Made by a program: the position numbers and the translations under genes. This document shows positions 16,345 to 64,000 of a stretch of DNA of 64,000 bases, piece after piece. The notes under the pieces were generated by a model. That model saw only the letters and a list, made by a program, of their open reading frames with translations, searched no databases and was not told where the DNA came from. Numbering within the stretch: the first letter of the stretch is position 1; each line of letters opens with the position of its first letter. The DNA lies in contig JAJXYT010000001.1 in NCBI GenBank assembly GCA_021780375.1, forward strand, positions 304-64,303. The letters run 5' to 3'. The stretch is from a bacterium. GTDB lineage: Bacteria; Verrucomicrobiota; Verrucomicrobiia; Limisphaerales; UBA11358.

Positions 16345-18795
16345 TTACCAGGGCCGTTCGACGCGGAAAAACCCGCTCCCCGACGCAGGCAAAGTGACAC
16401 TCAGCAGGCTGGAGTTGGTATCGAGAGCATTGGTGACCCACAACCATTGCGCGGGTGAAGCAAGCGCATCGTTCTTCCTCAGCAAGGTGTCAATGATGGT
16501 ATTGGGCCACGAAACGGTGATGGAGTCGCCGGCACGGGCAATATTCAACTGTACCGGATTACCGGCCACAATCAGGCCGGCATCCACCGAGCTGTTTCCC
16601 GACACGGTGGCAATCACGGTCCAAAGGTAAGTGCCCGGAAGCTGGTAGGTGTGGGTGGCGAACTGGTTTGTCCCATGCGGCGTATTGTCGCCGAAGTTCC
16701 AATCGTAGGTCACCGGCGCGGCGTTGTTGGAAACGGCGGGCACGGCCGCAAACGGAGCCGGCCAATTTGCCGGATAGGACGGCGGGACGTATCCGATGGC
16801 GCTTATGGAATATGGCCCTTGCGCCACGGACACGATACCGGTGCCAAGGTTCGAATTTTTGTTGCCGTCATAGGCCGCAAACATAAACGTGTCCGTCCCC
16901 ACGTAACCTGGATTCGGGAAATAGGTCGCCACATTGTTGCTCAACCCCACGGAACCGTTGGTCGCCTGGGAGAGGATCCGCAGGGTGAGGTTGCTGCCGG
17001 TCGCCGGCAATATCATGGCCACGGCCCTGTTATTGGTGGTGTTGGTGGAAACATTGCTCACGGCGGGTGGAACGCTGTTGTTGGGGTTGCTGTTGCCGGG
17101 TCCGTTGTGACAGAGGTAACAGCCAATTTCCGCCCCGCGGTAGAGATTGACCGTGTTCGTAACCGTGTCAAAACTGGCTATCAACGTGCGATCCGCCTGG
17201 GCGCGGGACAGGACGGTTCCCCGATAATCCGTTCCGTGGCAGATGGCACAGGCCGTCACCCCGCCCGGCAGCGAGTTGATCAAATCCCCGTGCGAGCCGA
17301 TCCAATTCTGGCCCAGCATGTGCATTCCGTGCGGCCCGCCGTTGGCGGTATTGGGCATGCTCACATGGCAGGCGGTGCATTCAATCATCATACCGACATG
17401 GCCCTGAATCTGGATGTTCCGCAAATTATCGTTGAGGTGCGTGCTGGGAAACTCCGCATGCGTCGAGCCATGGCACGCCTCGCATTGCAAACCGCCATGG
17501 CCGACGGAAAACCGGTACAACGCAAGATTATTGATGGCGAAAGTCTGGTCCACCGCAGTCCGAACGGTCCAGTTGGTATCGGTGAAGACGGAGGTGTAGC
17601 GGATTTGCCCGTTGTTATTGACGGCGGTGCCGGAGTGGCAGCTCTGGCACAGCGGTTCGTCCAGCCAGCCGGTGCGATTGGTCGAGCCAACCAGGCTCAT
17701 GTTGCCGTGGCAACTCTGGCATTGCATTTCCATGGAACCATCCGCTGCAATGGCCCCGCCCATCGCGCCGCGCAGGCATCTCGTCGTGGAACCGGGATGA
17801 CAGCGGTAACAGGCGGAACGGTTGGCGAGATTATCGAGGGTGGTATTGGACGTTGGATCCACCACATGCGCGTGGAATCCGTGCATGGAAGCTGTGAATG
17901 GAGGGATGTTGCTGTAACTGTTCAGAATATTCAGCGCCACGTCGGCATGACAAGCCGCGCACAGAACCGGTTTCCCATCGGCGGTCACGTTACGGTAGAG
18001 GCCTTGTGGATTGAAACCTCGGGCGGCCAGGGCGGCCTGGTAAAGTCCGGGAGACTGCGAGAACTGCCGCTCGTCGTGCAACCGAAGAATGTTCAGCCGG
18101 AAATCGCGTTCCGGCAAACCGTCCCAGACCCAGCCGGCCAGCGGCTCGGCGGCCGTTTGCGTGCCCGAAGCATGACAGGCGCGGCAATCCATTTCATCGG
18201 AGATGGGCAGGACAATCTGGTTCGTCGCGAGGATGTTGTTCCCGGCATCACGCGCCACGAGCAACATGAGCGGATAAGGATTTTTCTTGAGGGCATCGTC
18301 GTAAGGTGAAAGCGGAATTCCCTCGGCGCGCCACCAGTTGACCGGCGTGGTGACGCCGGGAAGCGGTGGAACGGGTGTGTTGGTTTGCTCGAAGAGCATT
18401 CCTTGCGGCGTGTTGTTGAGGCCGGGCATGCCCCAGTTGAGTAATCCCGCGTTCACCGGCAAATTGGCGCCGTACAACGGAAAGACAAAGCTGTAAAAAT
18501 TGCCTTTGCCCGCAGACGTGGAATTGAACGAGCCGGTGGGATCGGCCACCGCCTGGTACGTCACGGTGTAACCGCCGTTCGTAACCAGCAGTCCGCCGAC
18601 GATGAGCTGAGCCTCAATGGTGTTGTAGGGCGGCAGGATGGAGAACACCGAGTAATCGCTGTCTATGCAATGCATGCCGAGATTGTTCCAGCCAAGAACC
18701 TGGGCATTGGCCCCGCAACTCGTGTGGGGGAAAAGAAAAGTCAAAGCGAACAAACAAACCGCCAAACGCAAACGCCATGGTCGCCACGCTTTCAT
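16345..18795 (-). CDS. Secreted nonaheme c-type cytochrome with C-terminal Ig-like, PKD and FYR-tail domains
   Basis: Signal peptide and nine CxxCH motifs (CRACH, CAACH, CYRCH, CQSCH x2, CEACH, CTACH, CAICH, CYLCH). A PKD-type block is present (YDWNFGDNTPHGTNQFATHTYQLPGTY). The protein ends GFFRVERPW. Confidence 0.85.
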   Translation of the reverse strand: MKAWRPWRLRLAVCLFALTFLFPHTSCGANAQVLGWNNLGMHCIDSDYSVFSILPPYNTIEAQLIVGGLLVTNGGYTVTYQAVADPTGSFNSTSAGKGNFYSFVFPLYGANLPVNAGLLNWGMPGLNNTPQGMLFEQTNTPVPPLPGVTTPVNWWRAEGIPLSPYDDALKKNPYPLMLLVARDAGNNILATNQIVLPISDEMDCRACHASGTQTAAEPLAGWVWDGLPERDFRLNILRLHDERQFSQSPGLYQAALAARGFNPQGLYRNVTADGKPVLCAACHADVALNILNSYSNIPPFTASMHGFHAHVVDPTSNTTLDNLANRSACYRCHPGSTTRCLRGAMGGAIAADGSMEMQCQSCHGNMSLVGSTNRTGWLDEPLCQSCHSGTAVNNNGQIRYTSVFTDTNWTVRTAVDQTFAINNLALYRFSVGHGGLQCEACHGSTHAEFPSTHLNDNLRNIQIQGHVGMMIECTACHVSMPNTANGGPHGMHMLGQNWIGSHGDLINSLPGGVTACAICHGTDYRGTVLSRAQADRTLIASFDTVTNTVNLYRGAEIGCYLCHNGPGNSNPNNSVPPAVSNVSTNTTNNRAVAMILPATGSNLTLRILSQATNGSVGLSNNVATYFPNPGYVGTDTFMFAAYDGNKNSNLGTGIVSVAQGPYSISAIGYVPPSYPANWPAPFAAVPAVSNNAAPVTYDWNFGDNTPHGTNQFATHTYQLPGTYLWTVIATVSGNSSVDAGLIVAGNPVQLNIARAGDSITVSWPNTIIDTLLRKNDALASPAQWLWVTNALDTNSSLLSVTLPASGSGFFRVERPW

Positions 18796-30738: not shown

Positions 30739-30960
30739 ATGAACAAGCTGCGTTCCAATGGTCTGAATTTCACCGGACTCCTGGCGGAAAATATCGCGCT
30801 CATCTCACCCACTATGACGGCGGCGCTGATCATTCCGCTGATGCTTTCCACGATTGGCAACCTCAGTTGGGTGGGTTACGCGCCGGGCACAATCTTACCG
30901 ATGTTCGTCGTGTTCAATTTGAATCGTTTGCCCCCCAATCAGTTCGGTTGCAACCGGTAA
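30739..30960 (+). pseudogene. N-terminal ~70-aa fragment of an APC-family amino-acid permease
   Basis: MNKLRSNGLNFTGLLAENIALISPTMTAALIIPLMLSTIGNLSWVGYAPGTILPMFVVFNLN resembles the first two TM segments of APC permeases. The ORF ends where the convergent GH53 gene ends. Confidence 0.5.
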
Positions 30961-32270
30961 AAACGGGTCTGGCTCGAGTCCACCGGGAGGGTGACGGTAA
31001 ACACTACCCCCGTGGTTTGGGCCGTGTTGGGCACCAACGACCAGATCGCTGAGGGCTCCAGAGTGGTTGTGGTCGTCAACATCAAAGCCGCTCCACTGAA
31101 TGGCCACTGAAGCTGTAGATTTGAACCGTTGAGTGAGGGGCTTATCAAAAGCGGGGCGGCCATTCCCCCAACGGCGCGGGCCACCGGCAGAACATTGCCA
31201 CCGGCATCAAAAAACGACGACGAATTGAACCCGGCTTCATTGACACCGCTGGCCGCTTGATACTCGGCGCCCCAATAGACGAAGCCGGCCCCGAGGTGGT
31301 TGGGCACACTTTCCACAATCCTGGCCAGCGCGGCGATAAAGCTGACCTGACCAGCCGGGGTGGGAGGGTAGCCGTAAAGTTTGCCAAGCCAGGCGGAAGG
31401 GCAGGTATTGGTGTAGGGAAAGGCGTCCTCAGCTACGATGATGGGTTTGCCAAATTCAACGGCTGCATTGCTGAGACAATTATTCAGATTCGCCGGTGAT
31501 CCCTGGTAAAAAGGGTAATAACTCTCGCCGATGATATCGTAAGGAACTCCTTGAGCATTCAGGTTTTCAAAAAATGACCTGGTCGTGCCCCAGTCACCGC
31601 CTCTGTCAATATGTACGATGATCTTAGGCATTTTAGCCCCCGTAGCATTCGTCGCATCCTTGATTCCCTGGATTGCCGCATTCATCAATTGGCCCAGCCG
31701 GATCCACGATGGGTTGGAGCTGCTCCATGAGCCCGTTAGCTGTCCGTTGGTCCACAACATGCCGTAGGTGATTTCATTCCCGATCTGGACGTAATCCGGC
31801 ATTGCCCCGGCTGCCGCAAAAGCGACGATGGTGTTGCTGTTGTAAGCGCGCATCTGTGACACCAGTTGGGCGAAAGTCAGGGTTGCCCAGGCAGCCGGAG
31901 TGGTTTGATGCCCGGGGTCAGCCCAGGTGTCGGAGTAATGAAAATCCAGCATGAACTGTAACCCGGCGTTTTTGACGCGTTGAGCGAGCGGCAGCGTATA
32001 GGCAAGATTGTTGGTGTAGTTATATGGGTCGGCCTGGGCTTGAGCCGCGCTGCTGGTCCAGAGCCGCAATCTAATGCAATTAATGCCGTGATTCTTGAGA
32101 ATCTGAATCCCGTCCTGAACCTGCCCGGCGTCCTTGTAGGTAATACCCCGATCTTCGAAAAATTTTAGATCAGAAAAGTCCGCCCCGGCGATAAAGCTGT
32201 TTTGCGCGAATGATATACCCGGCGCAAACAGTGCCGCTATCATCATTAAAGAGACACAGGCAGATTTCAT
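30939..32270 (-). CDS. GH53 arabinogalactan endo-beta-1,4-galactanase with FYR-tail domain
   Basis: Signal peptide from ATG 32270. GH53 blocks are present (GADFSDL, NCIRLRLW, MLDFHYSDTWADPGHQ, VQIGNEI). The protein ends RFYRLQPN. Confidence 0.87.
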   Translation of the reverse strand: MKSACVSLMMIAALFAPGISFAQNSFIAGADFSDLKFFEDRGITYKDAGQVQDGIQILKNHGINCIRLRLWTSSAAQAQADPYNYTNNLAYTLPLAQRVKNAGLQFMLDFHYSDTWADPGHQTTPAAWATLTFAQLVSQMRAYNSNTIVAFAAAGAMPDYVQIGNEITYGMLWTNGQLTGSWSSSNPSWIRLGQLMNAAIQGIKDATNATGAKMPKIIVHIDRGGDWGTTRSFFENLNAQGVPYDIIGESYYPFYQGSPANLNNCLSNAAVEFGKPIIVAEDAFPYTNTCPSAWLGKLYGYPPTPAGQVSFIAALARIVESVPNHLGAGFVYWGAEYQAASGVNEAGFNSSSFFDAGGNVLPVARAVGGMAAPLLISPSLNGSNLQLQWPFSGAALMLTTTTTLEPSAIWSLVPNTAQTTGVVFTVTLPVDSSQTRFYRLQPN

Positions 32271-32382
32271 TTTAATAATGCTTACCTCGATCCAGCTGTT
32301 CACCCTGAAACTGAAGCTGGAGTCATTCCATTTTTGCGCGAACAACTCCAGCTTCGTGTCCGGATTTTATAATCCCGAACGG

Positions 32383-35094
32383 TCAGGGTGTCTTCAAGCG
32401 GAAGAATGTCCGGGATCCGGTGGCCGGCACCGGCAACGAATAAAGTCCATACGTGCCGGGCACATCCTGCCAATTCAAGCTGCTGCTTAAATTGGTGGAA
32501 CTCTGCAACTTCACCGCGGGGTTTCCAACCCAGGACAGATTGAGGTTGCCGCCTGTCAGCGGGCCGGCATTGATGCCGCCAACAACTCCCAGGTCCGCAA
32601 TCTGGAAGTTATCGAAGTTGAAAGTTCCCCCGCTCCCGACCGTGACGAACACCAGGCCGGCGCCCGTCATCACACCGCTCAAGTTGCCGGCCGCTGCCGA
32701 CCCAATCAACCCGCCCGAACTGGTCACGGTCAAGTTGTTCCAATTTGCCGCGGCGGGATTAAAGTTCATGGTGTAAGTGGAGAACACCGAGTTCGAGGCG
32801 GCATTCGGCCCCAACAAGGGGTTCGCGGAAATGTACCAATTGGCGCCATTAAGCTGCACCGCCACGTAGGCCGCGACGTTGGTGGCGGAAGCCGAGTTGG
32901 GCGCAATATCCGCCGAGATGCTCAAGTTGGGATAGGCGGCCAGGGCGATGTTCGGGAACGGCAGTCCAGACTGATTGGTATCGGAGGCCGTCGTGGCGTA
33001 ATACACCGTCGTGCCCGGAGTGCCAAGGTAGGCAAAGGCGGCTCCCTGGCTTGCGGCGCTTGTCTGGGCCGTTCCCACCTGGTAGAGGGCGTTGGGAGTG
33101 CCGGGAACCGCTTCCACCCAGCCAATACTGCTGATCGGATAGTTGCCGGCAACCGGGCCTACAAACGGAAACCCTTCCGAATAAACCAGGCCGACGGAAG
33201 GATTGGTTACCGTCAGGGTGGTGGCGCCAAAAATTGCGGCACTGTTATCACCGCCGGCCGCGTTGGTGACATATGCGACGATCTGCAGGCCATTATCGTT
33301 GGCAGTCAGATCCGAGATCGTCAAGGTCGCGGTGTTGGCGCCGGAGATTCGGCCTCCGTTGGAAACAAAGACGCCGTTGGTCGTCCAACTGTAGGTGAAG
33401 GGCGGAGACCCGGCGGCAGAAACCCCAAAGCTCGCGCCACCCCCGGCAGCCACCGTTACCGCCAGCGGGTAATTCAAGCCGATCGACGGCGGTGTTCCGA
33501 CGGCTTGATTGGTAATGATTTCAAAATTCTGGAAATTCATGTCCGAACCGGTCCCGGTATTGTGAGCAATCACCAGGCCGGCGCCAATGATGTTGCCGCT
33601 CAGGGCGCTTGAGGCCTGGCTGCCGATGATCGCACCCGTGCTCGTAATGGCCAGGTTGTTCCAATTGGTTGCCGCGGGGTCAAATCCATATTGATAGGTC
33701 TGATAATTGTTCAATGACGAGAGATCAATCAGGGCAGGTTGTGCCGAGCAATACCACCCGCTGGTCATCTTGACCGCCCAATAAACCGAGATGGCTCCGG
33801 AGACCTGGCCGGCGGCATTTCCCGGGACAAAACCAGCCTGGAAACTTACATACGGGTAACTGGACGGATTTATATCCACAAACGGCAATCCGGACAGTCC
33901 GGTGTCGTTGGTGTCCGTTGTGTAGTAAGCGTTGGTTGTGGCGGAAGGTGAATAGGAAAAGACATCGCCCAGCCCCCCGCCGGCCGGGTAAATGCCCACC
34001 ACCGTGCTGCCCGGCGCGGCACTGACCCAGCCGGGGCCAGTGATTGGCAGGTTGCCATTAGGTCCCACATAAGGGAATGTTTCCGCATACAAGAGCCCCG
34101 GAGGCACGTTACTGACAATCAGCTGCAGGCCGCTGTTGGTGGCGCCGCCAAATTTATTTGTCACGACCAGCGTGTAAAAGGAACCCGCATCGTTGAGGTT
34201 GCAATTGGTGATGGTGAGCGTATTGCCGCTGGTGCCGAGATACCTGCCGCCGCTGATATTAACTCCATTCGTCTGCCACTGGTAAACCAGGAGCGGACCG
34301 GCAAAGGTTGACAGAAACGATGCCCCACCGCCGACGTACACGTATTGCGGGCTTACCGCGGCGGCAGTATTGGTTGGCGCAGTTTGTGGAAAATCGCCCG
34401 GACCTTGATTTATGACGAGTTCGTTATAGTTGAACCCTCCGCTGGTCGGAAGCTCAACAATGCCAATGCCGGTGATCGGCGAGGTCAGGTTGGGGGAGGC
34501 CACGGCACCGATTGTCACATTGGTGGTGCCGTTGATGGTCAAAGTTTGCCAGACGTTGGCCGGATTGGTATAAATCAAGGCATCATTGGTAAACTGGGGG
34601 TAACCAAGATTGCCTTGATTGGGAAACTGATAAGAGGTTGCCACATACCACTGTCCACCCACCAGAACGGCAAAGTAATTGGTGTCCGTTGCCGCCCCGC
34701 GAACCTCGATGTTGAAGGTCAGGTTGGTGTACAGGGTCGGGTTAATATCACTGAAGGAGGAATTGCCGCCGGCTCCGGCGCCCGAGGTGTCGGTTGTGTA
34801 AAGCATCCCGGCCCGGTTGGTGCTCTGAAAGGCTGTAAAATAAACCGTATTGGGCGGCAGCGCCAGGCCGAGGGTCGGGTCGCTCGCGCCCGTGGCCGTG
34901 TAGATGCCGACATAAGGTCCGGCAGTCTGTGATGCCGCAATCGCCGTCCACCCAACCGTATTGATATTGCCGTTCCCGGTGACGCCGCTGTTACCGGTAC
35001 CCCAGTTTTCGGTGTAAACAGTCACCGCAGATGCAAACGGGACCGCGCTCAGCAGAGCGCTCCCGACGACAGCTATGAGTAGTATTTTTTTCAT
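32383..35094 (-). CDS. Large secreted protein: three [~200-aa LamG-like module + Ig-like domain] units plus FYR tail
   Basis: Signal peptide from ATG 35094. The internal threefold repeat is visible in the translation (modules starting VYTENWG, LLYAETFPYVGP, LVYSEGFPFVGP, each followed by an Ig-like YQW/YSW...TLTI block). The protein ends TFFRLKTP. Confidence 0.7.
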   Translation of the reverse strand: MKKILLIAVVGSALLSAVPFASAVTVYTENWGTGNSGVTGNGNINTVGWTAIAASQTAGPYVGIYTATGASDPTLGLALPPNTVYFTAFQSTNRAGMLYTTDTSGAGAGGNSSFSDINPTLYTNLTFNIEVRGAATDTNYFAVLVGGQWYVATSYQFPNQGNLGYPQFTNDALIYTNPANVWQTLTINGTTNVTIGAVASPNLTSPITGIGIVELPTSGGFNYNELVINQGPGDFPQTAPTNTAAAVSPQYVYVGGGASFLSTFAGPLLVYQWQTNGVNISGGRYLGTSGNTLTITNCNLNDAGSFYTLVVTNKFGGATNSGLQLIVSNVPPGLLYAETFPYVGPNGNLPITGPGWVSAAPGSTVVGIYPAGGGLGDVFSYSPSATTNAYYTTDTNDTGLSGLPFVDINPSSYPYVSFQAGFVPGNAAGQVSGAISVYWAVKMTSGWYCSAQPALIDLSSLNNYQTYQYGFDPAATNWNNLAITSTGAIIGSQASSALSGNIIGAGLVIAHNTGTGSDMNFQNFEIITNQAVGTPPSIGLNYPLAVTVAAGGGASFGVSAAGSPPFTYSWTTNGVFVSNGGRISGANTATLTISDLTANDNGLQIVAYVTNAAGGDNSAAIFGATTLTVTNPSVGLVYSEGFPFVGPVAGNYPISSIGWVEAVPGTPNALYQVGTAQTSAASQGAAFAYLGTPGTTVYYATTASDTNQSGLPFPNIALAAYPNLSISADIAPNSASATNVAAYVAVQLNGANWYISANPLLGPNAASNSVFSTYTMNFNPAAANWNNLTVTSSGGLIGSAAAGNLSGVMTGAGLVFVTVGSGGTFNFDNFQIADLGVVGGINAGPLTGGNLNLSWVGNPAVKLQSSTNLSSSLNWQDVPGTYGLYSLPVPATGSRTFFRLKTP

Positions 35095-35181
35095 GATGGT
35101 TGGGTTTATTTTGATTATTTGCTTGGTGCCGATAATGAAAGGAATGTTAAGCAATGGAAAAATCGGGCAATCACCGATGAA

Positions 35182-36090
35182 TTAATTGTAATTGTTCATC
35201 CATGTCGGCCAGTTCGGCGTCCAGGGGACAAAAATCTTGCTCCAAGGCAACGTCCAAAGCTCTTTCAACCCCACGTTCCTGACGGAACCATCTACGAAGG
35301 TCATATTGACAGGGCTTCGGCCGGGATGTCTGGCAGTGGCAAATGACTGCAATTCGGTGAATTTCCCGCAAAAACCTTGAGACTGAGGCGGCAAATTATA
35401 AATCAGGTTGCCGGTGCCAGGGGAGTGCGGATTGGATCCCTGCCAGACGCAGTCGCTGAATAATGGCACTCGTGTCGCGTACCTGCCCGCGGCGGTCATG
35501 GTCCGCCAATACCCCGGCGCATCGGGATCACCAACAATGGTTGCGGTCGGAGGGTTGGCCATCCAGCCGTTAAACCCATAACTGCCGCCCATTCCTGGAC
35601 GACCCCACGTCTCCGTCTGTCCCGTTCCGGGCGCCGTGCTCGAACCGACGGGATAAGCATTTGTACCCATTATCCCCCAGGCTAAAAAAGTGGTGTTGTT
35701 GACAGTCCACATGTTTGCACCCAATGAACTGCGGCATGTGGTGGCGGCAGGGCAAAAGCACATTTTACCGCCCATGCCGGTGCCCGTGCTGGATCCGGGA
35801 ATGTACGGCTGCAAAGCGAACATCCACATCCCATCAGGATCATACCAGCCCAACGGCAAACTGTCGTGGTGGTCCCCCGCATAAAGCTGAAAGGACAACC
35901 CCCACTGCCTGAGGTTCGATACGCACAGAATACGCTGCGCTCGGAGTTTTGCGGCGGACAGGGCCGGCAGCAACAAGGCCGCTAAAATGGCAATGATGGC
36001 AATCACCACCAGCAATTCAATCAACGTAAAGCCTGATCGCCATGGTCGCCTCTTTTTCAATTTTGATATTTTAAAATCGGGCGTCTGCAT
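35182..36090 (-). CDS. DUF1559-type protein with prepilin N-terminal cleavage/methylation signal
   Basis: [25 protein letters not shown] class-III signal and a C-terminal ...[11 protein letters not shown] block typical of the PVC-expanded DUF1559 family. Confidence 0.8.
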
Positions 36091-36266
36091 CTGGTATAAA
36101 TGAATTATCCGGATTGTATATTATTATATATCCTTTATCCGCTCTTGTTCAGCACATTTATGACAAGCCAGTTTTCATCTCATTTGTCCCGCTGTTGGAA
36201 CAACAACGGGCATTGTTTCACCTGACGGCATGAGTGATTACGTCAAACGTAGTTGGTTTTTTGGCC

Positions 36267-36295
36267 TTTGCCTAGCCTCACAAATGTAGAGTATT
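36267..36295 (-). promoter_or_regulatory. Conserved upstream motif, copy A (tttgcctagcctcacaaatgtagagtatt on the plus strand)
   Basis: 29/29 identical to 37391-37419. It lies 177 nt upstream of the DUF1559 gene start. Confidence 0.5.
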
Positions 36296-36567
36296 ACCGT
36301 GGCTACCTCGGCATGGCAAACGACCTAAGTCGTTTTGGATAAATACCATCATCCCGGTTCCGTTTTGCCGAATTGAATTTAAACGGAGCTTTGGGTCGGG
36401 AGCGGACTGGATCACGAAATGAATTTCGTCGATGCACAGTATGTGTCATCTGACAAACGGGCCTGCCGAATCCCGACGCCAAAATTGGCTGGATGATGTT
36501 ACAAGCACAAAGTGCTGCTCATTTTCACAAGCAGCACTTTTGCCTTTCACAATGGTCAAAATCAAAA

Positions 36568-37335
36568 CTAACGGGCGGAAAATACCCTTCGGCGCACAAT
36601 CATCAGCAACGCGCCCAAACCGAGGAATGCGCTCGCAACCGGTTCGGGTACCACGGTGTACCTATACGCCGCCGTGCCAAACTTCGTGGCGGCTCCCCCG
36701 GCATCGGTAGCAGCGTCATAAGCATTTTGACCAAGAGTATAAGCGTGATAGCTATTATCTGTCTCCGCCGGATAATTGCTGAGCAATGAACCATAGGCGG
36801 ATTGCCCGGCACTATTGGGGTACGATGACGCAACGTCAAAGTAGAACTGGCTGCCAACACTCAATCCGAGGCTGCTTAACGGCACGGTGAACGTGAGGAA
36901 ATTGTTTCCTGTGCCGCCAGCATCATAGCTCACTGCGGCGTTCTGCGTCCATGCGCCGCCACTGTAGGTGTCCGCACTGGCGCCCGTGTTCCAAGTGGCC
37001 GCAAAGGCGTTTTCACCGGTACTGATGCCAAGACTGGGCCCCCACCCGTTCAGGGCTCCCGCGGAGTTAAACAGCGCCGTACTGCCACTGGCACCCTGGC
37101 CGACATACTGCAAGAGGACATAATACTGAACGTACGCGCTCTGCGCCGCGCTCGTATTAATGGAGAAAGTGATGCTGCTGGCAGTATTGTTGATTACGAC
37201 GCTGCTGATACCTTCCCCATTGGCCCCGCCGCCATTCGCAGTACCGGGACCGATATAAGTGACCTGAGCCTTAGCCGGCAACAGGGCGATTGACAACGCG
37301 GCGAGTACTGATGCGACTGAAGAAACAATTTTCAT
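36568..37335 (-). CDS. PEP-CTERM sorting-domain protein
   Basis: Signal peptide from ATG 37335. The C-terminus VVPEPVASAFLGLGALLMIVRRR has the PEP motif, a TM helix and a basic tail. Confidence 0.8.
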   Translation of the reverse strand: MKIVSSVASVLAALSIALLPAKAQVTYIGPGTANGGGANGEGISSVVINNTASSITFSINTSAAQSAYVQYYVLLQYVGQGASGSTALFNSAGALNGWGPSLGISTGENAFAATWNTGASADTYSGGAWTQNAAVSYDAGGTGNNFLTFTVPLSSLGLSVGSQFYFDVASSYPNSAGQSAYGSLLSNYPAETDNSYHAYTLGQNAYDAATDAGGAATKFGTAAYRYTVVPEPVASAFLGLGALLMIVRRRVFSAR

Positions 37336-37390
37336 AGACGATTGATTTACGGGTTTGCCAACTGCATCAATTATGCCCAAAATTCTTGAG

Positions 37391-37419
37391 TTTGCCTAGC
37401 CTCACAAATGTAGAGTATT
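37391..37419 (-). promoter_or_regulatory. Conserved upstream motif, copy B
   Basis: Identical 29-mer, 56 nt upstream of the PEP-CTERM gene start and just downstream of the response-regulator stop. Confidence 0.5.
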
Positions 37420-37462
37420 CCAAGCCTTCGCCCGGCCCGCATATTATGTAAGTCCTTCTGAA

Positions 37463-38110
37463 TTAACGGCTATCCGGTTTATCCTGTTTGGTGGAACGGA
37501 ATTTGAGGGCCGCTTCGGTGCGGGAACGGACATGCAGCTTATTGTACACGTGCCGGAGATGCCAGCGCACTGTGCCATCGGTCAATCCCAAGCGGTCGGC
37601 GATTTGTTTGTTGGGGAATCCGCTGGCCAGCAATTCCAGGATCTCCCGCTCGCGCGCCGTGAGGTCTTCCACTTCCATGGCGGTCGCCAGCGGCTCTTGA
37701 AAGGAAGCGATGACCTTGCGCGCGATTTCCCGCGACATCGGGGCGCCGCCCTGCCGGACTTCGCGGATGGCGGCAATGAGTTCTTCGGGGGCGCAACGTT
37801 TCAGGAGATAACCACAGGCCCCCATGCGCAGGGCTTTGAAAATCCGTTCGGTGTCTTCATAGACCGTTACCATGATAATTTGGACGGCGGGCAGCGATTG
37901 TTTCAGTTGAGCGAGGCAATCAATGCCCGACATGTTGGGCAATTGAATGTCCATCAGCACAATCTCGGGCTCGTGTTTGGGAATCACCTTCAACGCTTCT
38001 TCGGCCGTCGCACAAGCGCAGACACAGCGGCATTCCGGGTCCGCGTGGATGAATTCCATGAGACTCTCGCGAATCACTTTGTTGTCTTCAACAATGGCAA
38101 TCCTGGTCAT
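37463..38110 (-). CDS. NarL/LuxR-family response regulator
   Basis: REC domain (IVLMDIQLP) plus a LuxR HTH (LTAREREILELLASGFPNKQIADRLGLTDGTVRWHL). The start overlaps the kinase stop (ATGA). Confidence 0.9.
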   Translation of the reverse strand: MTRIAIVEDNKVIRESLMEFIHADPECRCVCACATAEEALKVIPKHEPEIVLMDIQLPNMSGIDCLAQLKQSLPAVQIIMVTVYEDTERIFKALRMGACGYLLKRCAPEELIAAIREVRQGGAPMSREIARKVIASFQEPLATAMEVEDLTAREREILELLASGFPNKQIADRLGLTDGTVRWHLRHVYNKLHVRSRTEAALKFRSTKQDKPDSR

Positions 38111-41100
38111 GAACTTAAAGGCACGTAAAATCGCACTGTGGTGCCGTGACTGGCTTCACTGGTAATTTCAAATCTTCCACCCAACTTTTCAATGCGCGCC
38201 CGCATGTTGGCCACGCCGTCCATTTCCCCGGTGGGCACCCCCGCGGAGAATCCACGCCCGTTGTCGGCGACGGCCAGCCACACCTGACCTTGTTCCGCCT
38301 GGATGCTCAAGCGAACTTCCGAAGCGTCGGCGTGGCGCACCACATTGGTTAACGCCTCCTTGAACGCCAGGAACAACTGATGCCGGTGCCGTGAATCCAC
38401 CATGGGATCGGGCATTGCGGGCATGCCTTCCAGGCGCCAGGCGATGTTGGCCAGGCCCAGGAAACGGTCCGCGTAAAGACAAAAATAACTGACCAGCGAC
38501 GCGAGGGAATCGTGTTTTGGATTCATGGCCCAGACGATCTCATCCAGCGCCGTGACCATTTCGCGGGCTTTTTCACGCGCTTGTTCCAGATAATGGTTCC
38601 GCTTTTGGTCGGGGGCGGTGGCGGATCTTGCCCGGGCGGCCAACATGCTGATTTCGGTGATGCCCGAGCCGAGTTCATCGTGCAGATCCTGGGCAATCCG
38701 GGCGCGTTCCTGCTCCATGGCGCGCTGGTGCTCGACCTTCTGGCGCTGCTGGATTTGAGCTCCCAGCTCCCGGGTGCGTTGTTCAACCTGCCGATGCAAT
38801 TGAGTAATCCACAGCGCGGCGGCGGCCAGCACACACACCAACACACCCATCATGACCAGCAACCGTTCCAGCGTCCACCACGGCGGCCGCGCCAACACTT
38901 TGATGTCCGCGGACGAATTGAGCAGCAGTTCGAAAGAGGTGATATCCTGACCCATCGCCCGGTTCCCGCCTTCACCCAGATAAACTCCGACCAGTTCCAA
39001 ACGGGCGCCCGGAGCCAGCGAATGGACGGAATCATTCCGGGTATTGAGCCGGGCCATAAACGTGCGGACGCCGCTCCGCATTTCCAGAGCCTGGCCGGCC
39101 GGCGTTTCCCGCACGTTCACGAGCAATCCGTCCACCGTCACGAGCGTCGAGTCATACTCCGCATGGATTAAATTGTCCGGTTGCAGCTTGCGCGCCTTCG
39201 GCAGGGGGGCGTGGCCGATCTTGCGCGCCACGGCCTCATGCAGGAGCGGAGAAGCGCCGCTCAGTCCCGGAAAGCCGACCACTTCCACCCGATCACCGGC
39301 TGCCAGTCCCGGAACCGGTTTCTTCAAAACAAATTGCACGCCGTATTTGTCATCCATCAGATAATATTCCGGAGCCTGTGCGTAAATAATCTGTCCCGAA
39401 ACTTTCACCCGCTGGAACACGCCGGCTTGCGGGTTGAACTGCAACAATTCCGCCACGGTCTTCAAGGGAAGCGAAAACAAATCTGTCGGGGCCGGCTGAT
39501 CCACCGAGATTTCCGCGCCGTAAACCCGGATCTCGCCCACTTTTACCTGGTGCGTCACGTAATCCCAGGAGGCCAGCAGACAGCCCCGCACGCGGACGAC
39601 GGCATCTTCATAGCGCTCCAGCCCCGCCGTCTTGATTCCGACAACCCTTAACTCCAACTTGAGCTGGCCGTCCCCCGTGAACAGCGTTACGCCATTGGTG
39701 CTGACCGACGTGATGATGCCCTGTAATTCAACATACTGGGCATCCAGACTTCCGTTCATCAACTGTTCCCAGGCCGGATGCACCGGCTGCGGCAAACGGC
39801 CCGCCCCCAGATCCCCGACACGGTCCGCATCAACAATGGGAGCAAACAGGCTGGGATCGGTCTTGCCTTCGACCTCGAGGTACTCACCAATCTTCGGCGG
39901 CACGGACCGGCTCTCGGAAGCATCAACCACATACAATCCGCGGGTGGCATCTTGAATGGTGAAAGCCTGGCGTTCCGGCAGGACACAGGTAACGACCCCC
40001 TGGATTTTTACAGGATAGCCCCGCTGCGCCTCTTCCCGGTTCAATTGATGAACTTCACTGGCGGTGGTCAACACCGGCAATGTTCCCGCGCGGGTGTCCT
40101 TGTTTTTGGGCGTGGGATTGGTTGTCCCGATGATTTGGATGGCGTGTTTGTCCGAAACCAACAGGACACCACCCACTTGCTCTGCCTCGGCATCGTAAAC
40201 ACTTTGGCAAACGCCGGTGACCCGGACCCGGCTGTTCAACAGCCGGCCCACCGACAATCCGGAACCATCCGCCACCTTGAGCTTCAGGCGGCCGGTCTCG
40301 GAGGTTAATTCCAGGTCCCAACCATCTTTCCGATCACTGACAAACGTGACTTTTCCTTCAACTTCAACCCACTGATAATCACCGCTTTCGCTCAATGTCT
40401 GCCCGATGGTCATCCGGCGCGGTTTCGGCAGTTCTATCCGTCCGATCGTTTCCAGCCGGAGCCCTGAAAGTGTTCGGGGTTCACCAATGAATAATTGACT
40501 GCCATCATCCGAGGTAAGGTAAAAGGTATAAAGGCCGTCGCGGGGAACCTGAAGATAGCCCGTGTATTCCAATCCAACGTGTTCGTTGTGGCTCATCACA
40601 CCCAGCATGACGCCGAGATCAAAGTTGGACACGTTCCCGGTTTTGAGGGGAGCCAGCTCTTTGAAGTCAGGCAAAACCTCGCCGTCAGCTTCGTAACAGG
40701 CATAATTCAATCCGTTTACAAAATTGGTTGCCTCCGTGGCATCCGTTGGAACACGAAAGAGCACTGAATCAGGAATGCTTTGACGGGGCAGGGCCGGCCC
40801 TTGATAAGCCACTTCCAGGCCATATTTTTCGACACCATTAAACCAATCGACGCGAATGGGATGGCGGCCCGCCTGAAGATAGACCGCCCCGGATTTTTCA
40901 ATCATCGTATGGATGCCGTCGTCATCCACCACCGGTCCCACGATTCCGAGTTGAACACCCGCATCCCGCCGGGTAATGGTGCTTTGGCCCTCCAATCGCA
41001 CGCGCTGGCCCGGTTCGAGGGACCGGCCCGCCAAATCCATCTCCAACTCGTCCGTCCCGGACGCATCCTGCAAAACGAATTTTCCCTGCGCCGGGTCCGC

Positions 41101-41328: not shown

Positions 41329-41401
41329 GGTAGAACCGGGGCTGCATTTGTCGAGACTCTTACATTCAGGTTCAGCAGATGGTTCGGACATTCGGTTTGC
41401 T

Positions 41402-41907
41402 TCAGGCTCGCACGGTTCTGGTACGCGCCAGCGCGTCCGTTTGGGAGGGAACCTCTGTTGAACCGCGGCTCCGCTCGGTGACATTGAATCCCCAAAATCG
41501 AATCGGTTGACCATTCCCTTTGACCAGTGGGTCGCCCTCCGCGCGAATAAAGCCGTCCTTTCCCGCGGGCGCATCCAGCCGGAAAGAAAAATCAATGACG
41601 GAGTTGGTGGCGTGGCGATAATCGATGACAAAAGGCTTAAGCTCGATTCCCGGTGACGCAAACGGCGTCGTCAGCCCGAAGGACCGTCTGAAGAAATCGG
41701 ATCTCCACCGGGGGCATTTATCTTGGTCGTTTCCACACCGCCGTTCGGCGCTTGTCTGCCGGCCGGTGGCACTCCATTCCGGGCCGGCGCCGGCGCCGGG
41801 GTTAAAAGCAAAAACAGAAGGGTCCATCCGGGCGCTCGAATTTTCATCTTCCAGTAAAAGTCGCCGGTTCGGAAGCCTGCGCCCAAAAGTCCGCACCTGA
41901 TTGACAT
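41402..41907 (-). pseudogene. Frameshifted, 3'-truncated remnant of a secreted glycoside-hydrolase-like gene
   Basis: A signal peptide MKIRAPGWTLLFLLLTPAPAPA is in one frame. In another frame, LKPFVIDY...LDAPAGKDGFIRAEGDPLVKGNGQPIRFWGFNV resembles the entry to a GH TIM barrel. The ORF stops ~25 codons later. Confidence 0.4.
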
Positions 41908-41990
41908 CCAAGCTCTCCGCGGGGACAGTTTGGTTCATCGTCGGAGAATCGAGGTTGGCTGTTAACCGGGATATTTCACACTCATTGGCA

Positions 41991-42056
41991 GGGAGCGCCG
42001 GCTTGGAGCCGGCCTGGCGCGTTCGTCGCCCAATGCCGGTTGCAGACCGGCGCTCC
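41991..42056. repeat. Degenerate GC-rich hairpin of the GGAGCGCC...GGCGCTCC class
   Basis: gggagcgccggcttggagccggc ... gccggttgcagaccggcgctcc. The outer 10-11 nt are complementary and the interior is degenerate. Confidence 0.5.
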
Positions 42057-42095
42057 GTTCTGTCGGCGTTTTGTGCGAAGTGCGAAATATTCAGG

Positions 42096-51315: not shown

Positions 51316-53535
51316 GTGAGCCTGAGCGCCTACGCCGACACAGTTTTGACAGAACAATTTCAAGACTACGCCACCGGGAACCTCGGCGCGACCGGAACGG
51401 GGGCTACGGGCGGCGTTCCCGGTTGGAATACCCCGAAATCTCACATCACTGTCACCAACGGCAGCGGCAGTCTGGATGGAACCGGACTGGGTCTGGTCGC
51501 GTCCGCCGGCGACATGGTTTACATCATACCCACCGCCAATACCAATGACAATTTCGATACCAACTCGGCGGGCATTCCCAACGGCTGCTACAACCTGTTT
51601 GCCTACAAAACTTCGCCGTATCCGACTTTCCCCGGGACCACCAATGTCAATCTTTATTGTTCGTTCCTTTTTCAGTTCAACGACAACACGAATTTTCCCG
51701 CCAACGGGGTTTCAATGATTGCAGGGATGTATCTGGAAAACGGCGGCATTCAAAGCTCCAGTGGGGCTGATGCGTATTGGCAATTGTTGGCGAGGTCGGC
51801 TGGCGGTAATAACGTTCAGCTTGGAATCGCCAAAAACATCTTCGGCCCTGTTCCTGGCATTACCAACTGGGATTCCACCACCATTACGGTGGGACAACCC
51901 ATTTTTGTCGTCACCCGGCTGCAAATTGCAGCGACCAACGGTTTGAACAATTACACGAATGACGAATCGGATCTCTGGATCAACCCGCCGGCCAATACGT
52001 TCGGGACCAACGAGGCCAATGTGCCGGCCCCCGACGCGAGCTCACCTCCGGGTGACGGCGCTCCTCCCTCAAGTTCCACCGGACCGGGGCGCTTTTTCAT
52101 AACGGACAACGGTCTGGGCGCCAATTTGGATGAATTGCGCATTGCCACGAATTGGGCGGAGGTCACGCCTCCCTTTGGCCAATGTCTCTCGGCGGCCTTT
52201 ACTACGAATCCGACAAACTTAACGCAGGTTGCGGAGATCAGCGCGACTTTTTATTCAAAAGCGGCCAACAGCACCAGCCCCGAGTACCAGTGGCAGATCA
52301 GCCAGAACGGCGGCGCCACGTGGTCCGACATCAGCGGCGCGATTCGCAACATTTACACCACCCCCAACTTGCAGTTGGCGACTGACAATGGAAATCAATA
52401 TCGGGCCATCGTCAGTGTCCCCTGCGACGGGTCCTCGGCCACTTCCTCGGTTGCAACCGTGACGCTGACTGCGCCGACGGTTACGCCGTCGCCCAGCACG
52501 ATCATGAATGATGTTTTCCCGGGCAATACTTTCCGCGATGTGGGTCCCGTCACGACCACTCATTCAACCTGGTTCACTGGCAATGCGGCGCCTTCAAGCT
52601 CGTCAGATTTGTTGACGGATCCTAGCGGGACGGGCCTGATCGCCCTGCCGATTAGTGGGAGTTCGAGTTTGTATTTGGGTTATTTTGTCAATGAAACCCC
52701 CAGCAGCAAGTTGCCGGTTCATTTGGCCATCGGAACCCAAATCACCGCCACCCTCAAGTTCATTCCCAGCTCATTCAACGCCTTTACCAACAATGGGGCG
52801 CTGCGATTCGGCCTGTTTGATTACGCTGATAGCGGTACGTTGATTACCAGTGATCAGGCAAACCTCACTGGGAGCCTGGGTTATGGATTGAACGTCCGGG
52901 GGTATATGCTCAGTTTGGACTTTGGCACCAACTTCATCGATAACACGCCCTTGTCGCTCTATGTCAGGAACGGCCTGGGTGATAATAATCTGATGGGCAC
53001 AACGGGCGATTACTTATCCATGGGAGGCGGGCCGGCGGGAGGCGCATATTCAAATACGCCCGCGTTCCAAGCCGGCACTACTTATACTTTGGCATTGACC
53101 GTGGCACGAACAGGCACCAATGCCTCTACGGTCACAGCGGCGATTACCGGCGGCAGCCTGAATCTGTCGTTTACCGCCACCGACACCAACAGTTTCGGCT
53201 ACCATAGATTCGATACGCTTGCCGTCCGGCCCAACAAGCTTGAGAACGCAGCCGACCAGTTCACGTTCCCGCTGTTCACCGTCCAAGTGACCAATGCGCC
53301 GGTGCAGGTGTCGAGTGTGGCGCTTGCGAGTGTTTCCCGTACCGGAAATAACGTGACTCTCACATGGCAGGCGGCCCCGGGTGGCGCTGATGTCAGCAGC
53401 GGTTTTAGTGTGTATCGCAAGAACAGCCTGACCGATGCTACTTGGACCTTGCTGCAATCCGCGATCACTACAACAAATTATACGGACACGACAGCGACCA
53501 ACAGTGCGGGCTTCTACCGCATAAGTTATCCGTGA
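51316..53535 (+). CDS. Secreted LamG-like/Ig-like/FN3-like protein with FYR tail; signal peptide is split off by a frameshift
   Basis: The main ORF starts at GTG 51316 with no signal peptide. ATG 51272 encodes MKQIHSILAIILGVT and then a stop in another frame. The N-terminal module resembles that of PEP-CTERM protein 61498-62343. The protein ends GFYRISYP. Confidence 0.7.
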   Translation: MSLSAYADTVLTEQFQDYATGNLGATGTGATGGVPGWNTPKSHITVTNGSGSLDGTGLGLVASAGDMVYIIPTANTNDNFDTNSAGIPNGCYNLFAYKTSPYPTFPGTTNVNLYCSFLFQFNDNTNFPANGVSMIAGMYLENGGIQSSSGADAYWQLLARSAGGNNVQLGIAKNIFGPVPGITNWDSTTITVGQPIFVVTRLQIAATNGLNNYTNDESDLWINPPANTFGTNEANVPAPDASSPPGDGAPPSSSTGPGRFFITDNGLGANLDELRIATNWAEVTPPFGQCLSAAFTTNPTNLTQVAEISATFYSKAANSTSPEYQWQISQNGGATWSDISGAIRNIYTTPNLQLATDNGNQYRAIVSVPCDGSSATSSVATVTLTAPTVTPSPSTIMNDVFPGNTFRDVGPVTTTHSTWFTGNAAPSSSSDLLTDPSGTGLIALPISGSSSLYLGYFVNETPSSKLPVHLAIGTQITATLKFIPSSFNAFTNNGALRFGLFDYADSGTLITSDQANLTGSLGYGLNVRGYMLSLDFGTNFIDNTPLSLYVRNGLGDNNLMGTTGDYLSMGGGPAGGAYSNTPAFQAGTTYTLALTVARTGTNASTVTAAITGGSLNLSFTATDTNSFGYHRFDTLAVRPNKLENAADQFTFPLFTVQVTNAPVQVSSVALASVSRTGNNVTLTWQAAPGGADVSSGFSVYRKNSLTDATWTLLQSAITTTNYTDTTATNSAGFYRISYP

Positions 53536-61497: not shown

Positions 61498-62343
61498 TTA
61501 GCGTTGCATCCGACGCCGGGCTGAGGCAATCAAACCGAATATTCCCAAGCCTGCCAGCGCCAAGACAGACGGTTCGGGAACGCCCGCGGGCGTCACATCC
61601 GCCCAAGTTGTGCCAATCAAAAGATTATCAACCAAATAAGGACCACCCGCCGCGGTTTGAGCTTTGAACCCTACGTTGTCTATGTTTCCGTACGACCCTC
61701 CCCCAGTTCCATACGCTCCAGACGCCGTAAGACCTGAAAGAGTTGCAATCGCTGTGGGTGCGGTTCCACCAAAGGTGCTTGCGTCCGGGTCTATCCAAAG
61801 GCTGGCAGTATGTGCATCGAGGTCAATCATTTCAACGATGAGGTACGTCGTATTAAGTGTCAAGGCGGTGCCGGTCCCAGCGGTTGCCGAAGCAGGGTTG
61901 GCTCGCAACTCCATCTTTCCGTTCGAATAATAATAGGCATCAATCGCGTCGCTGCCGCCATTGGGAGTATTGGCGCCCGCATTCAACGCGGTGAAGTAGT
62001 TATTGGCACTGTCGGCTGCAGTTGCATTAAACAAGAAGGAATAGTAAACCTGCCCGCTGGTCTGATTTGCGAACGTATTATAAATAGTTCCCGCGGCCCC
62101 GTTAGCGATTTGAAGTTCGTTGCCGCCCGAATCTGCCAAACCCGCATAAGTCAGGTTACCGCTGGCAACGGTCAAACCGGAATTACCGGCGCTCCAAGCG
62201 GTGCTGTTACCGGGGTTGATATTACCGCCAAGGACACCCGGGCTATAATTAAAAGCTTCTGAAAAAAGCAGCGTGGCATGGGCAGTCTGAAAAGCAAAAC
62301 AGAGGGCGCCCATAGTGAGAATGACTGAGTATGTACGTTTCAT
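61498..62343 (-). CDS. PEP-CTERM sorting-domain protein with LamG-like module
   Basis: Signal peptide from ATG 62343. The body is LLFSEAFNYSPG...LWIDPDASTFGG...LLIGTTWADVTP and the C-terminus is VPEPSVLALAGLGIFGLIASARRR. Confidence 0.8.
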   Translation of the reverse strand: MKRTYSVILTMGALCFAFQTAHATLLFSEAFNYSPGVLGGNINPGNSTAWSAGNSGLTVASGNLTYAGLADSGGNELQIANGAAGTIYNTFANQTSGQVYYSFLFNATAADSANNYFTALNAGANTPNGGSDAIDAYYYSNGKMELRANPASATAGTGTALTLNTTYLIVEMIDLDAHTASLWIDPDASTFGGTAPTAIATLSGLTASGAYGTGGGSYGNIDNVGFKAQTAAGGPYLVDNLLIGTTWADVTPAGVPEPSVLALAGLGIFGLIASARRRMQR

Positions 62344-62581
62344 AATAAGACTTTGCGATTTATGGTTCGTTCTTCTGATTGCTTTATAATAACCCACTTC
62401 TGCAATCTGTCAGCCCCGTTTTGTTGCAAACATGCATGAAAATTGAGAACTATCGATTTCGAATGATGCTCTATAACCTGTTTATTATTAGCCACTAAAG
62501 ACCACTGTTGCCTAAGCTTTTGAAATGCAGTAAGGAACGCAAATTCGCGCTGTTCCTGGCTCCGGCTGGCCATTCCACCGA

Positions 62582-64000
62582 TTACGGTATTTCCAAAATG
62601 TAATACGCTTGTGGCGCTTTCGGATCGGGGACGTTGGTGAAAATGAAATGACCGCTCCCATCAAAGAGATTGGTGGCAACCGGCGTCCACTGGTTCAGCG
62701 GAAGCGCGATATTGGTGGAAACCAGCATGTAAAAAGTGCCGTTGGTTGTGCCGCCAGTGCCGCTCATGACCAAGCCATTGGCCGTGGCGCTGATGCTGCT
62801 GAAGCTCGGCGGCGACGGCAGCTGAGGTGTCGCGCTCACTTCGGACGAATTGGCGCTTTCGCCGCCTCCATTTACCGCCGATACCACATAATAGTAAGTG
62901 GTGCCGTTTGTGACCTGCGTGTCGGTGTAGCTCGTCGCTGTGACACTGGCATTGGTCGCTGACTCGTTGCCACTGATGGTCGTGCGTTTGACATTGTAGC
63001 TGGTCGCCCCGGAGGAAGCATTCCAAGTCAAGGCGACTTGCGCGTTGCCGGCCGTGGCCGACAAACCCGTCGGCGCCGCCGGCGGGCCGTTGGTCGACGT
63101 GACGACCAAATTCACTTGCCCGGCTGTGCTGGTGTTTAACTGATAAGTATAACCCGCCGGTGTGGCACCCAACACAGGCGTGCCGGCCCGGGTGCCAGTA
63201 TAGGTGAACAACGTGTAGGCACCCGCGCCGAAGCCGGCGCCAGCGGCGATGTTCAGCGTGCTGTTCAGGGTCAGATTGCCGGTTACTGCGATTTCGGCGA
63301 CGTTGGTACCCAAGGTAAAATTCACAGGGGTTGTGGCACCCAGCGTCAGACTCGTTCCATCCGAGAGCGCGCTCCCGCCCAGACTGATGGGATTGGCGCC
63401 GAATATGGTGGAGTCGCTCAAGGATGCCGACTGATTGTAAAATGCCAGGGCATTGGTGACCGACGTGCCGTCCAGCGTGATGGTGCCGTCGCCGGTCGCA
63501 GAGTTCGTAAAGGTAACCTGCGAGTTAAACAACTCGAAGGTTTTGCTCCCAGCCGGGAAGATTTGGGAGTCCACAACTTGAACGCCCCGAACATTGTAAA
63601 GGGCAAACGCACTGTCACCAGCGGAGGAATCGGTCGAGGTGATGTTGAGTTTGCTCAAAACAATATTGGACGCGGGCAACTCACTGCGCGCCCAAATCAT
63701 GCCCGGTTGGGCGGCCGTCGCCGTCACATTACTGATGACGATGTTCCGCCATATCGGCGTCGTGCTGCTCACCGATGACACCGCTGTTCCCGCTGCCACC
63801 GATGGCGTGATGCCGGCCGTGGTCGGATTGCCGTATGAATTGTAATAGCTGTAAATCAAAATCGGCGCATACTTGATGTTCGTCATGCCGATGTTGTAGT
63901 AGGACATGTTTTGCACCACCCCCCCGCGGTCGTTGTCGGACTTCATGCGGATGGCATTGTCGGTATTGGTGAAGATGCAGTTGATGACGGTCACATTTGA
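62582..64000 (-). CDS. Pectin-lyase-fold (GH28-like) protein, 5' end outside the window, with FN3-like domain and FYR-type tail
   Basis: The frame is open to the window edge. A beta-helix segment (NAIRMKSDNDRGG...) is followed by an FN3-like block (PTGLSATAGNAQVALTWNASSGATSYNVKR). The protein ends AYYILEIP. Confidence 0.7.
   Translation of the reverse strand, partial: SNVTVINCIFTNTDNAIRMKSDNDRGGVVQNMSYYNIGMTNIKYAPILIYSYYNSYGNPTTAGITPSVAAGTAVSSVSSTTPIWRNIVISNVTATAAQPGMIWARSELPASNIVLSKLNITSTDSSAGDSAFALYNVRGVQVVDSQIFPAGSKTFELFNSQVTFTNSATGDGTITLDGTSVTNALAFYNQSASLSDSTIFGANPISLGGSALSDGTSLTLGATTPVNFTLGTNVAEIAVTGNLTLNSTLNIAAGAGFGAGAYTLFTYTGTRAGTPVLGATPAGYTYQLNTSTAGQVNLVVTSTNGPPAAPTGLSATAGNAQVALTWNASSGATSYNVKRTTISGNESATNASVTATSYTDTQVTNGTTYYYVVSAVNGGGESANSSEVSATPQLPSPPSFSSISATANGLVMSGTGGTTNGTFYMLVSTNIALPLNQWTPVATNLFDGSGHFIFTNVPDPKAPQAYYILEIP

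Follow-up and report, generated by a model that had tools for sequence, protein, structure and literature searches.

The FYRL module, an FN3-related domain family that ends exported proteins of Verrucomicrobiia

Why should a galactanase, a multihaem cytochrome and an immunoglobulin-repeat protein, encoded close together in one bacterial genome, all end alike? The question is raised by a stretch of 64,000 nucleotides from contig JAJXYT010000001.1 of a Limisphaerales bacterium (phylum Verrucomicrobiota), henceforth the window, by which we mean the whole of the DNA analysed. The window is chromosomal (hflX, glgC, kdsA, lptB, gatAB, moaA, modABC). The original prediction, made from the letters of this DNA, held that five functionally unrelated secreted proteins close with a common element of about 60 residues that runs out in two aromatic residues and an arginine, and it proposed this element as a candidate sorting or anchoring tag. 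Here we show that all five tails represent a single autonomous domain of about 70 residues, which we name the FYRL module, and we weigh what such a domain may do at the end of so many different proteins.

Five tails, one domain

In order to exclude circularity, the window was scanned with a hidden Markov model (HMM) built from 80 sequences that are all external to it (public metagenome proteins), the target being its 895 six-frame open reading frames (ORFs). This external-only HMM matched exactly five tails, the same five and in the same places as originally predicted, with E-values of 1e-22, 2e-21, 2e-11, 3e-10 and 1e-8. All five matches extend as far as the stop; after them, the best-scoring ORF of the window stands at E 0.35. 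The modules and the genes that they terminate are:

30942..31163, minus strand: FYRL module of about 72 residues, the C-terminal end of a signal-peptide GH53 endo-galactanase (gene 30939-32270), ending TRFYRLQPN before the stop; E 1e-22, HMM positions 2-71
16348..16566, minus strand: FYRL module, the C-terminus of an 816-residue MtrC/MtrF-like multihaem cytochrome (gene 16345-18795), ending GFFRVERPW before the stop; E 2e-21
32386..32586, minus strand: FYRL module, the C-terminus of a 903-residue signal-peptide protein with Ig I-set repeats (gene 32383-35094), ending TFFRLKTP before the stop; E 2e-11, HMM positions 10-72
53308..53532, plus strand: FYRL module, the C-terminus of a LamG-like/Ig protein (gene about 51272-53535, body 51316-53535), ending GFYRISYP before the stop; E 1e-8
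62585..62818, minus strand: divergent FYRL module, following a classic FN3 domain in a GH28-like protein (62582 to beyond 64000), ending QAYYILEIP before the stop; E 3e-10, last 77 residues

The module is thus somewhat longer than had been thought, at about 70-75 residues. The motif [FYW][FYW][RK][LIVM].{1,6}$ was found in 4 of the 367 stop-to-stop ORFs of at least 80 residues, and all four are among the claimed genes; the fifth tail, that of the GH28-like protein, ends YYILEIP without the arginine, so that the proposed aromatic-aromatic-Arg ending holds for four tails of the five. Pfam assigns the passenger of the first gene to GH53 (E 3e-88), finds Big_9 and PKD domains in the cytochrome, and assigns GH28 and fn3 to the GH28-like protein, whose N-terminus lies beyond the edge of the window. 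The LamG-like gene has a signal peptide, MKQIHSILAIILGVT (ATG at 51272), whose frame is shifted by one base relative to the gene body, which begins ...VSLSAYA followed by DTVL at 51316 on the plus strand; the difference in frame points to a 1-nucleotide frameshift or an assembly error near 51310-51316. These two proteins qualify the claim that the element always lies at the extreme C-terminus of a signal-peptide protein, the one having its signal peptide out of frame and the other being truncated by the window edge.

Chance similarity of the five tails was rejected on the grounds that the external-only HMM matches just these five. Generic FN3 identity, part of one of the findings that the original prediction had named as refuting it, was likewise rejected: classic FN3 copies score at most 10 bits with the external-only HMM, and the classic FN3 inside the GH28-like protein just 5 bits, which makes the module a distinct family. 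Among the five, the module of the LamG-like protein is the closest to classic FN3. Over the last ~70 residues of all five proteins, no Pfam or NCBIfam model matches.

A search with the five-tail profile against 1.84 billion cluster representatives gave a family of 4,935 representative protein clusters at E<=1e-3, of which 95 reach E<=1e-10; in many of the proteins 2-17 stretches were matched. A single-tail query had returned 2 proteins only, the word-index search being insensitive for short, divergent queries. An alignment of 85 sequences of the family (A2) has the consensus P.L.I...G....LSWP.......L.....L.....W..VTN.....G....VT.P......FFRL, or more fully P.L.I...G..v.LSWP....gf.Lq.s..L....W..VtN.....G....VT.P......FFRLxxP. 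In A2, conservation is at least 90% at the two Trp and at the Phe, Arg and Leu; four aromatic residues are conserved in the module, and the final strand is conserved on both faces, its Arg being nearly invariant. Compared with Pfam and NCBIfam, the 85 sequences match no family. The Pfam fn3 model finds none of the five tails and only one of the 85 family members (E 0.05), and PPC (PF04151), PKD and Big models give no match to the 85 at E<=1 bar a single chance-level Big_6 and DUF4784_N.

Is this element a tag or a domain? AlphaFold2, given the GH53 tail and the A2 alignment, returned a model of seven beta strands with pLDDT 90.7 and pTM 0.74, so that what the proteins share is a folded domain rather than a short tag. 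The nearest solved folds found by Foldseek are cytokine-receptor FN3 domains, CBM56 and CBM21 (CBM, carbohydrate-binding module), with TM-scores of about 0.6 and E-values that are not significant (for CBM56, TM 0.60 and E 0.17). A profile search of Protein Data Bank (PDB) sequences showed that no PDB chain truly matches the module; the matches were marginal ones, to a CBM32/discoidin domain of a Paenibacillus glucanase (E 3e-4), spanning 56 columns of a 137-residue domain and covering a generic strand-loop-strand pattern only, and to the FN3 domains of titin and ChiA1 (E 0.03-0.07).

The ancestry of the fold emerges from profile-profile comparison. Aligned by hhalign to an alignment of classic FN3 (A5), A2 gave a probability of 96.3% and an E-value of 1.9e-9, module columns 6-75 pairing with FN3 columns 2-64 of 86, and with the B-strand Trp and the F-strand motif Y-x-[YF]-R-[VIL] aligned between the two. 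Since the alignment ends at FN3 column 64 of 86, the module appears to comprise strands A-F, the FG loop and the G strand having no counterpart. The tandem period of the module, ~72 residues versus 82-96 for classic FN3, agrees with a missing G strand, and compared with FN3 the module has an additional short hairpin before strand E. In tandem arrays each copy ends in F[FY]RL plus about three residues and the next begins 3-6 residues past FYRL, which makes "FYRL, three residues, stop" the natural end of a domain. Indeed, FFRL is usually followed by three residues (an end of 2-4 residues), the last of them Pro in 60 of 138 cases.

The module hence resembles FN3 (PF00041) in profile-profile homology, in its nearest solved folds and in forming tandem arrays on extracellular proteins, but differs in ending after strand F at ~72 residues, in the extra hairpin, in going undetected by Pfam fn3 and in being nearly always the last domain. 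From these sequence comparisons we conclude that the FYRL module is an unannotated family that derives from FN3 and appears to lack the G strand. Literature searches (FYRL/FFRL motif, Verrucomicrobia C-terminal sorting, Limisphaerales secretomes) found no paper on this domain. What is new here is the domain family; the FN3 fold class was already known.

Position, passengers and taxonomic home

Where does the module sit in its proteins, and what does it accompany? Architectures were counted with the external HMM on the top proteins of the family, of which 143 matched among the 150 listed. Of the 143, 137 (~96%) end with the module. Most of the apparent non-terminal exceptions under a first, cruder profile proved to be classic FN3 cross-matches, and protein P0003, another apparent exception, has at its end a further copy that the profile had missed. 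An independent sample was provided by the ORFs that adjoin pattern-retrieved GH53-type tails in 58 genome loci (see below), ORFs that had themselves not been selected by the pattern. Sixteen of these neighbours carry the module, 14 of them at the extreme C-terminus. The two exceptions, in loci L046 (6035-7999, minus strand) and L054 (170-2731, plus strand), form an orthologous GH53 family in which both a CBM-like region and the catalytic domain lie C-terminal to a genuine copy (...TFFRLSA). This family is the sole clear non-C-terminal use of the module that we observed.

The passengers are diverse and all of extracellular types: 79 Pfam families in 53 proteins, including fn3, LamG, DUF11, Big, S8 and M36 peptidases, GH53, LVIVD and FG-GAP.

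The taxonomic home of the module was determined with a degenerate DNA pattern for the GH53-type tail subfamily, run against 185,579 species genomes. The pattern matched 66 times and a real module is present in 58 of the loci, nearly all of them titled Verrucomicrobiota, Verrucomicrobiia, Limisphaerales, Limisphaera or subdivision 3; in the eight module-less loci, which lie outside the phylum (Alloyangia, Aeromonas, Rhodobacter and others), the pattern seems to have matched by chance. Some metagenome-assembled genomes (MAGs) with genuine modules are oddly titled (L031, L040 and L027, also L005, L012, L032, L033, L039 and L056), as Bifidobacteriaceae, Sulfopaludibacter, Angelobacter, Acidiferrales, Saccharimonadales and others. 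Since synteny with the window, at a nucleotide identity of 68-80%, is seen in L031, L040 and L027, these labels are probably wrong.

The window itself allows tailed proteins to be compared with relatives that lack the module or end differently:

42096-43454, minus strand: tail-less second GH53 (Pfam GH53, E 2.5e-92), no module in the window scan
43638-46214, plus strand: tail-less GalB beta-galactosidase (NCBIfam GalB, 1212 bits), no module in the window scan
55725-57098: tail-less GH28, the paralogue that contrasts with the tailed GH28-like protein at 62582 onwards
61498..62397, minus strand: PEP-CTERM protein that has a homologous N-terminal domain in common with the LamG-like protein, its C-terminus being matched by PEP-CTERM family models

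The tailed GH53 (30939-32270) lies in one apparent galactan locus with the tail-less GH53 and GalB, together with a sensor kinase and a response regulator, and the absence of the tail from the second GH53 and from GH2/GalB, as predicted, was borne out by the scan. One member of each paralogue pair (GH53, GH28) bears the module. Judged by sequence, this split seems to follow the expected cell compartment, the tail-less paralogues being the putatively periplasmic ones.

A further contrast is offered by PEP-CTERM. The window holds three PEP-CTERM proteins, which the original prediction had rightly set apart as using a distinct device: VPEP, a helix and RRR are seen in them and in none of the five tails. 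Over about 290 residues, the N-terminal domain of the PEP-CTERM protein at 61498..62397 is 27% identical to that of the LamG-like protein (BLASTP, E 1.7e-5), so that one passenger is seen with either device, PEP-CTERM or the module. This common domain (51316-52250, plus strand, in the LamG-like protein; 61498-62300, minus strand, in the PEP-CTERM protein) starts ...E.F.Y..G.L......GW and has no Pfam or NCBIfam model; by eye, three repeats of it can be made out in the 903-residue protein (32383-35094, minus strand). The module and PEP-CTERM (TIGR02595) thus share a genome, a window, a kind of surface protein and one homologous N-terminal domain that carries either, and differ in that PEP-CTERM is a short motif with a transmembrane helix and a basic tail, whereas the module is a folded domain of 70 residues without hydrophobic helix. 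PEP-CTERM identity was accordingly rejected, the tails ending ...F[FY]R[LIV]xxP at the stop with no hydrophobic helix. LPXTG, GlyGly-CTERM and other short sorting signals were rejected too, from C-termini read directly and from the lack of any NCBIfam sorting-signal match.

Proposed surface retention and its rivals

What, then, might the module do? Variable terminal repeats on otherwise unrelated enzymes and adhesins are typical of the SLH, GW, choline-binding and LysM retention modules. Functionally these come closest to the architecture of the FYRL module, with variable tandem copies at a protein terminus and unrelated exported enzymes and adhesins as passengers; they differ in having unrelated folds and sequences and in occurring mostly in monoderm bacteria with known wall ligands. 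We tentatively favour a similar role, in which non-covalent binding through the module would keep the passenger at the cell surface or direct it there, extra copies adding avidity and reach. In our reading the module, as one copy or as several set head to tail, closes Sec-exported proteins of Limisphaerales-type Verrucomicrobiia whose work lies beyond the periplasm, among them endo-acting glycoside hydrolases, MtrC-like cytochromes, proteases and repeat proteins that resemble adhesins. After export it would hold the passenger on the surface by binding non-covalently to a component of the envelope or matrix, additional copies would contribute avidity and reach, and the terminal copy, with its best-conserved last strand, may also be recognised for transfer across the outer membrane.

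Several observations weigh against this proposal or against a strictly terminal module. Fifty-six per cent of the top proteins (80 of 143) are multi-copy, with 2-10 tandem copies, although in 68 of these 80 the copies form a contiguous head-to-tail array that reaches the stop. The internal copy of the L046/L054 family indicates that a free C-terminus is strongly preferred and not obligatory, and the C-terminal bias could in part reflect the ease of adding a module at the 3' end of a gene. Terminal copies score better than internal ones (a mean of 70 versus 48 bits) and more often keep aromatic-aromatic-R-[LIVM] (91% versus 71%), a better fit that owes something to circularity, terminal copies having supplied most of the HMM. 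Conservation alone is no proof of a binding surface, since the conserved residues (the two Trp, F/Y and L) largely answer the needs of a beta-sandwich core. The present analysis identified no binding partner, co-distributed machinery, processing enzyme or cleavage site, and the taxonomic picture is that of one subfamily only, because it rests on the scan with one subfamily pattern. As to the claim of strict terminality, the module is indeed the last element nearly throughout, and it is the arrays and the L046/L054 family that break a "terminal only" rule. In spirit the module does not occur internally as often as terminally, because the arrays are anchored at the C-terminus.

One alternative is that of a true secretion or sorting domain, comparable to the type IX secretion system's (T9SS) C-terminal domain (CTD): an undescribed machinery of the outer membrane in Verrucomicrobiota, serving translocation or attachment, would recognise the module at the terminus, which might then be removed or bound covalently, and copies further inside would be duplicated spacers. 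The near-strict position at the extreme C-terminus with its fixed end of 2-4 residues after FFRL, the great diversity of passengers, five copies in 64 kb, which hint at many per genome, the absence from periplasmic paralogues, the alternation with PEP-CTERM on a homologous passenger and the better conservation of terminal copies all speak for it. So does a proposal for Akkermansia muciniphila, in which the final small beta-sandwich of the sulfatase Amuc0953 was likened to a T9SS CTD and linked to location at the cell surface (bioRxiv preprint, doi 10.1101/2025.09.11.675649); this domain resembles the module in being a terminal beta-sandwich on a Verrucomicrobiota enzyme, a comparison made by description and not by sequence. 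As a precedent from within the phylum, it also favours the retention or targeting that we prefer. Like the T9SS type A CTD (TIGR04183 / PF18962), the module is a compact Ig-like beta-sandwich that mostly lies at the very C-terminus of proteins with signal peptides, has diverse passengers and a conserved final strand, and probably has many paralogues per genome. The resemblance is one of logic only, since the module also occurs in tandem arrays and occasionally internally, and has no sequence match to the CTD: the Por_Secre_tail HMMs (TIGR04183 / PF18962) find nothing at E<=0.1 in the five full proteins or at E<=1 in the 85 module sequences, and T9SS CTD structures are absent from the top 50 structural neighbours. 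Membership in the T9SS CTD family was therefore rejected. To our knowledge no T9SS has been described in Verrucomicrobiia, and none of the T9SS core genes (PorK/L/M/N, SprA, PorV, PorU) lies within the 64-kb window. Together with the comparisons to PEP-CTERM, GlyGly-CTERM and LPXTG, this means that the module matches no model of a known sorting signal. Arrays of up to 10 copies, for which we know of no parallel among T9SS CTDs or other sorting signals, the genuine internal copy in L046 and L054, and a search that turned up neither a candidate machinery nor a cleavage motif further make a sorting domain of this kind doubtful, if a serious contender.

In a more specific and rather unlikely form of this idea, Verrucomicrobiota would possess an undescribed route for secretion through, or attachment to, the outer membrane, and the module would label its cargo, dozens to hundreds of proteins per genome, in functional analogy to the T9SS CTD. 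The G strand would be missing by design, and the exposed, highly conserved F strand (FFRL) of the terminal copy would dock by beta-strand augmentation on a surface receptor or translocon. Docking of this type is conceivable, since the missing G strand would leave FFRL, the best-conserved strand, as the edge of a sheet; a mechanism like the donor-strand one of chaperone-usher systems, suggested by the same missing strand, was also considered as a candidate.

Could the module instead be inert, a mere spacer or an aid to solubility or folding in the manner of PKD, Big and pre-peptidase C-terminal domains, with no role in targeting or binding? Its clear FN3 homology, its bead-like arrays, its mostly core-type conserved residues, its company of Ig-like spacers (PKD, Big_9, fn3) and its ability to sit internally would all suit such a domain. 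Generic spacers, however, lie between domains, whereas the module comes last in about 96% of proteins, and a lone copy that ends an enzyme spaces nothing. The final strand with both faces conserved and a nearly invariant Arg, and the distribution of the tail among the paralogues of the window according to expected compartment, also fit poorly with an inert element, and we regard it as unlikely. A carbohydrate-binding module that targets enzymes to plant polysaccharides appears improbable. The weak CBM32/discoidin match (E 3e-4), the CBM56 and CBM21 neighbours in Foldseek, the many glycoside hydrolase passengers and the four conserved aromatic residues point in that direction; but the CBM matches are marginal and generic, the same module is found on GH53 and GH28, which have different substrates, and it is also borne by multihaem cytochromes, S8 and M36 peptidases, and LVIVD and FG-GAP proteins.

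The sorting or anchoring role first proposed for the five tails is therefore upheld in part. It agrees with a distinct family, a terminal position, diverse extracellular passengers, absence from the periplasmic paralogues and alternation with PEP-CTERM, and less well with the tandem copies, the internal GH53 copy and a search that identified neither machinery nor cleavage site; non-covalent retention or targeting at the surface is the form of it that we tentatively prefer.

A probable galactan locus and the biology of Verrucomicrobiota

Several features of the surrounding DNA deserve mention. The region 30939-46214 looks like a galactan-utilisation locus, with the tailed GH53, the 903-residue Ig-repeat surface protein, a DUF1559 prepilin-like protein, a PEP-CTERM protein, a response regulator, a 1184-residue sensor kinase, the tail-less GH53 and GalB. 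Part of it is kept in the closest relatives among GTDB representatives, which are Verrucomicrobiia MAGs (nucleotide identity to the window 87.6% for L041, 82% for L037 and 79% for L006): close relatives retain modABC, the module GH53, the ~900-residue module protein and the prepilin-like DUF1559 gene in synteny, and the order of GH53, ~900-residue protein and DUF1559 is conserved in L006, L037, L009 and L031. Two genes with prepilin-type N-terminal methylation signals (DUF1559-like, GspG/H-like N-terminus; 35182-36090 and 54617-55582, both on the minus strand) adjoin clusters of module-bearing or glycoside hydrolase genes. An ORF of 101 residues (46366-46671, minus strand), between the galactan genes and the hexuronate (UxaE/UxaC) genes, resembles the zinc ribbon of ISL3-type transposases (PF14690, E 2e-4, under the gathering score) and is probably the remnant of an insertion sequence. 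A 155-residue TPR ORF (57221-57688, minus strand) shares 66% identity with the C-terminal 135 residues of a 740-residue membrane/TPR protein two genes off (59182-61404, minus strand), and may be a partial duplication or a remnant.

Verrucomicrobiota are major degraders of polysaccharides in soil, peat, water and the gut, and little is on record about the means by which their enzymes, cytochromes and adhesins come to lie on the outer membrane or beyond it. If the module marks the extracellular member of paralogue pairs, as it appears to do in the window, it would allow surface and secreted proteins to be predicted from sequence alone in thousands of MAGs. A new Pfam or NCBIfam model is justified and would improve the annotation of at least 4,935 protein clusters. 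For the phylum as a whole, the module may provide a concrete handle on the partner or machinery by which proteins are exported across, or retained at, the outer membrane.

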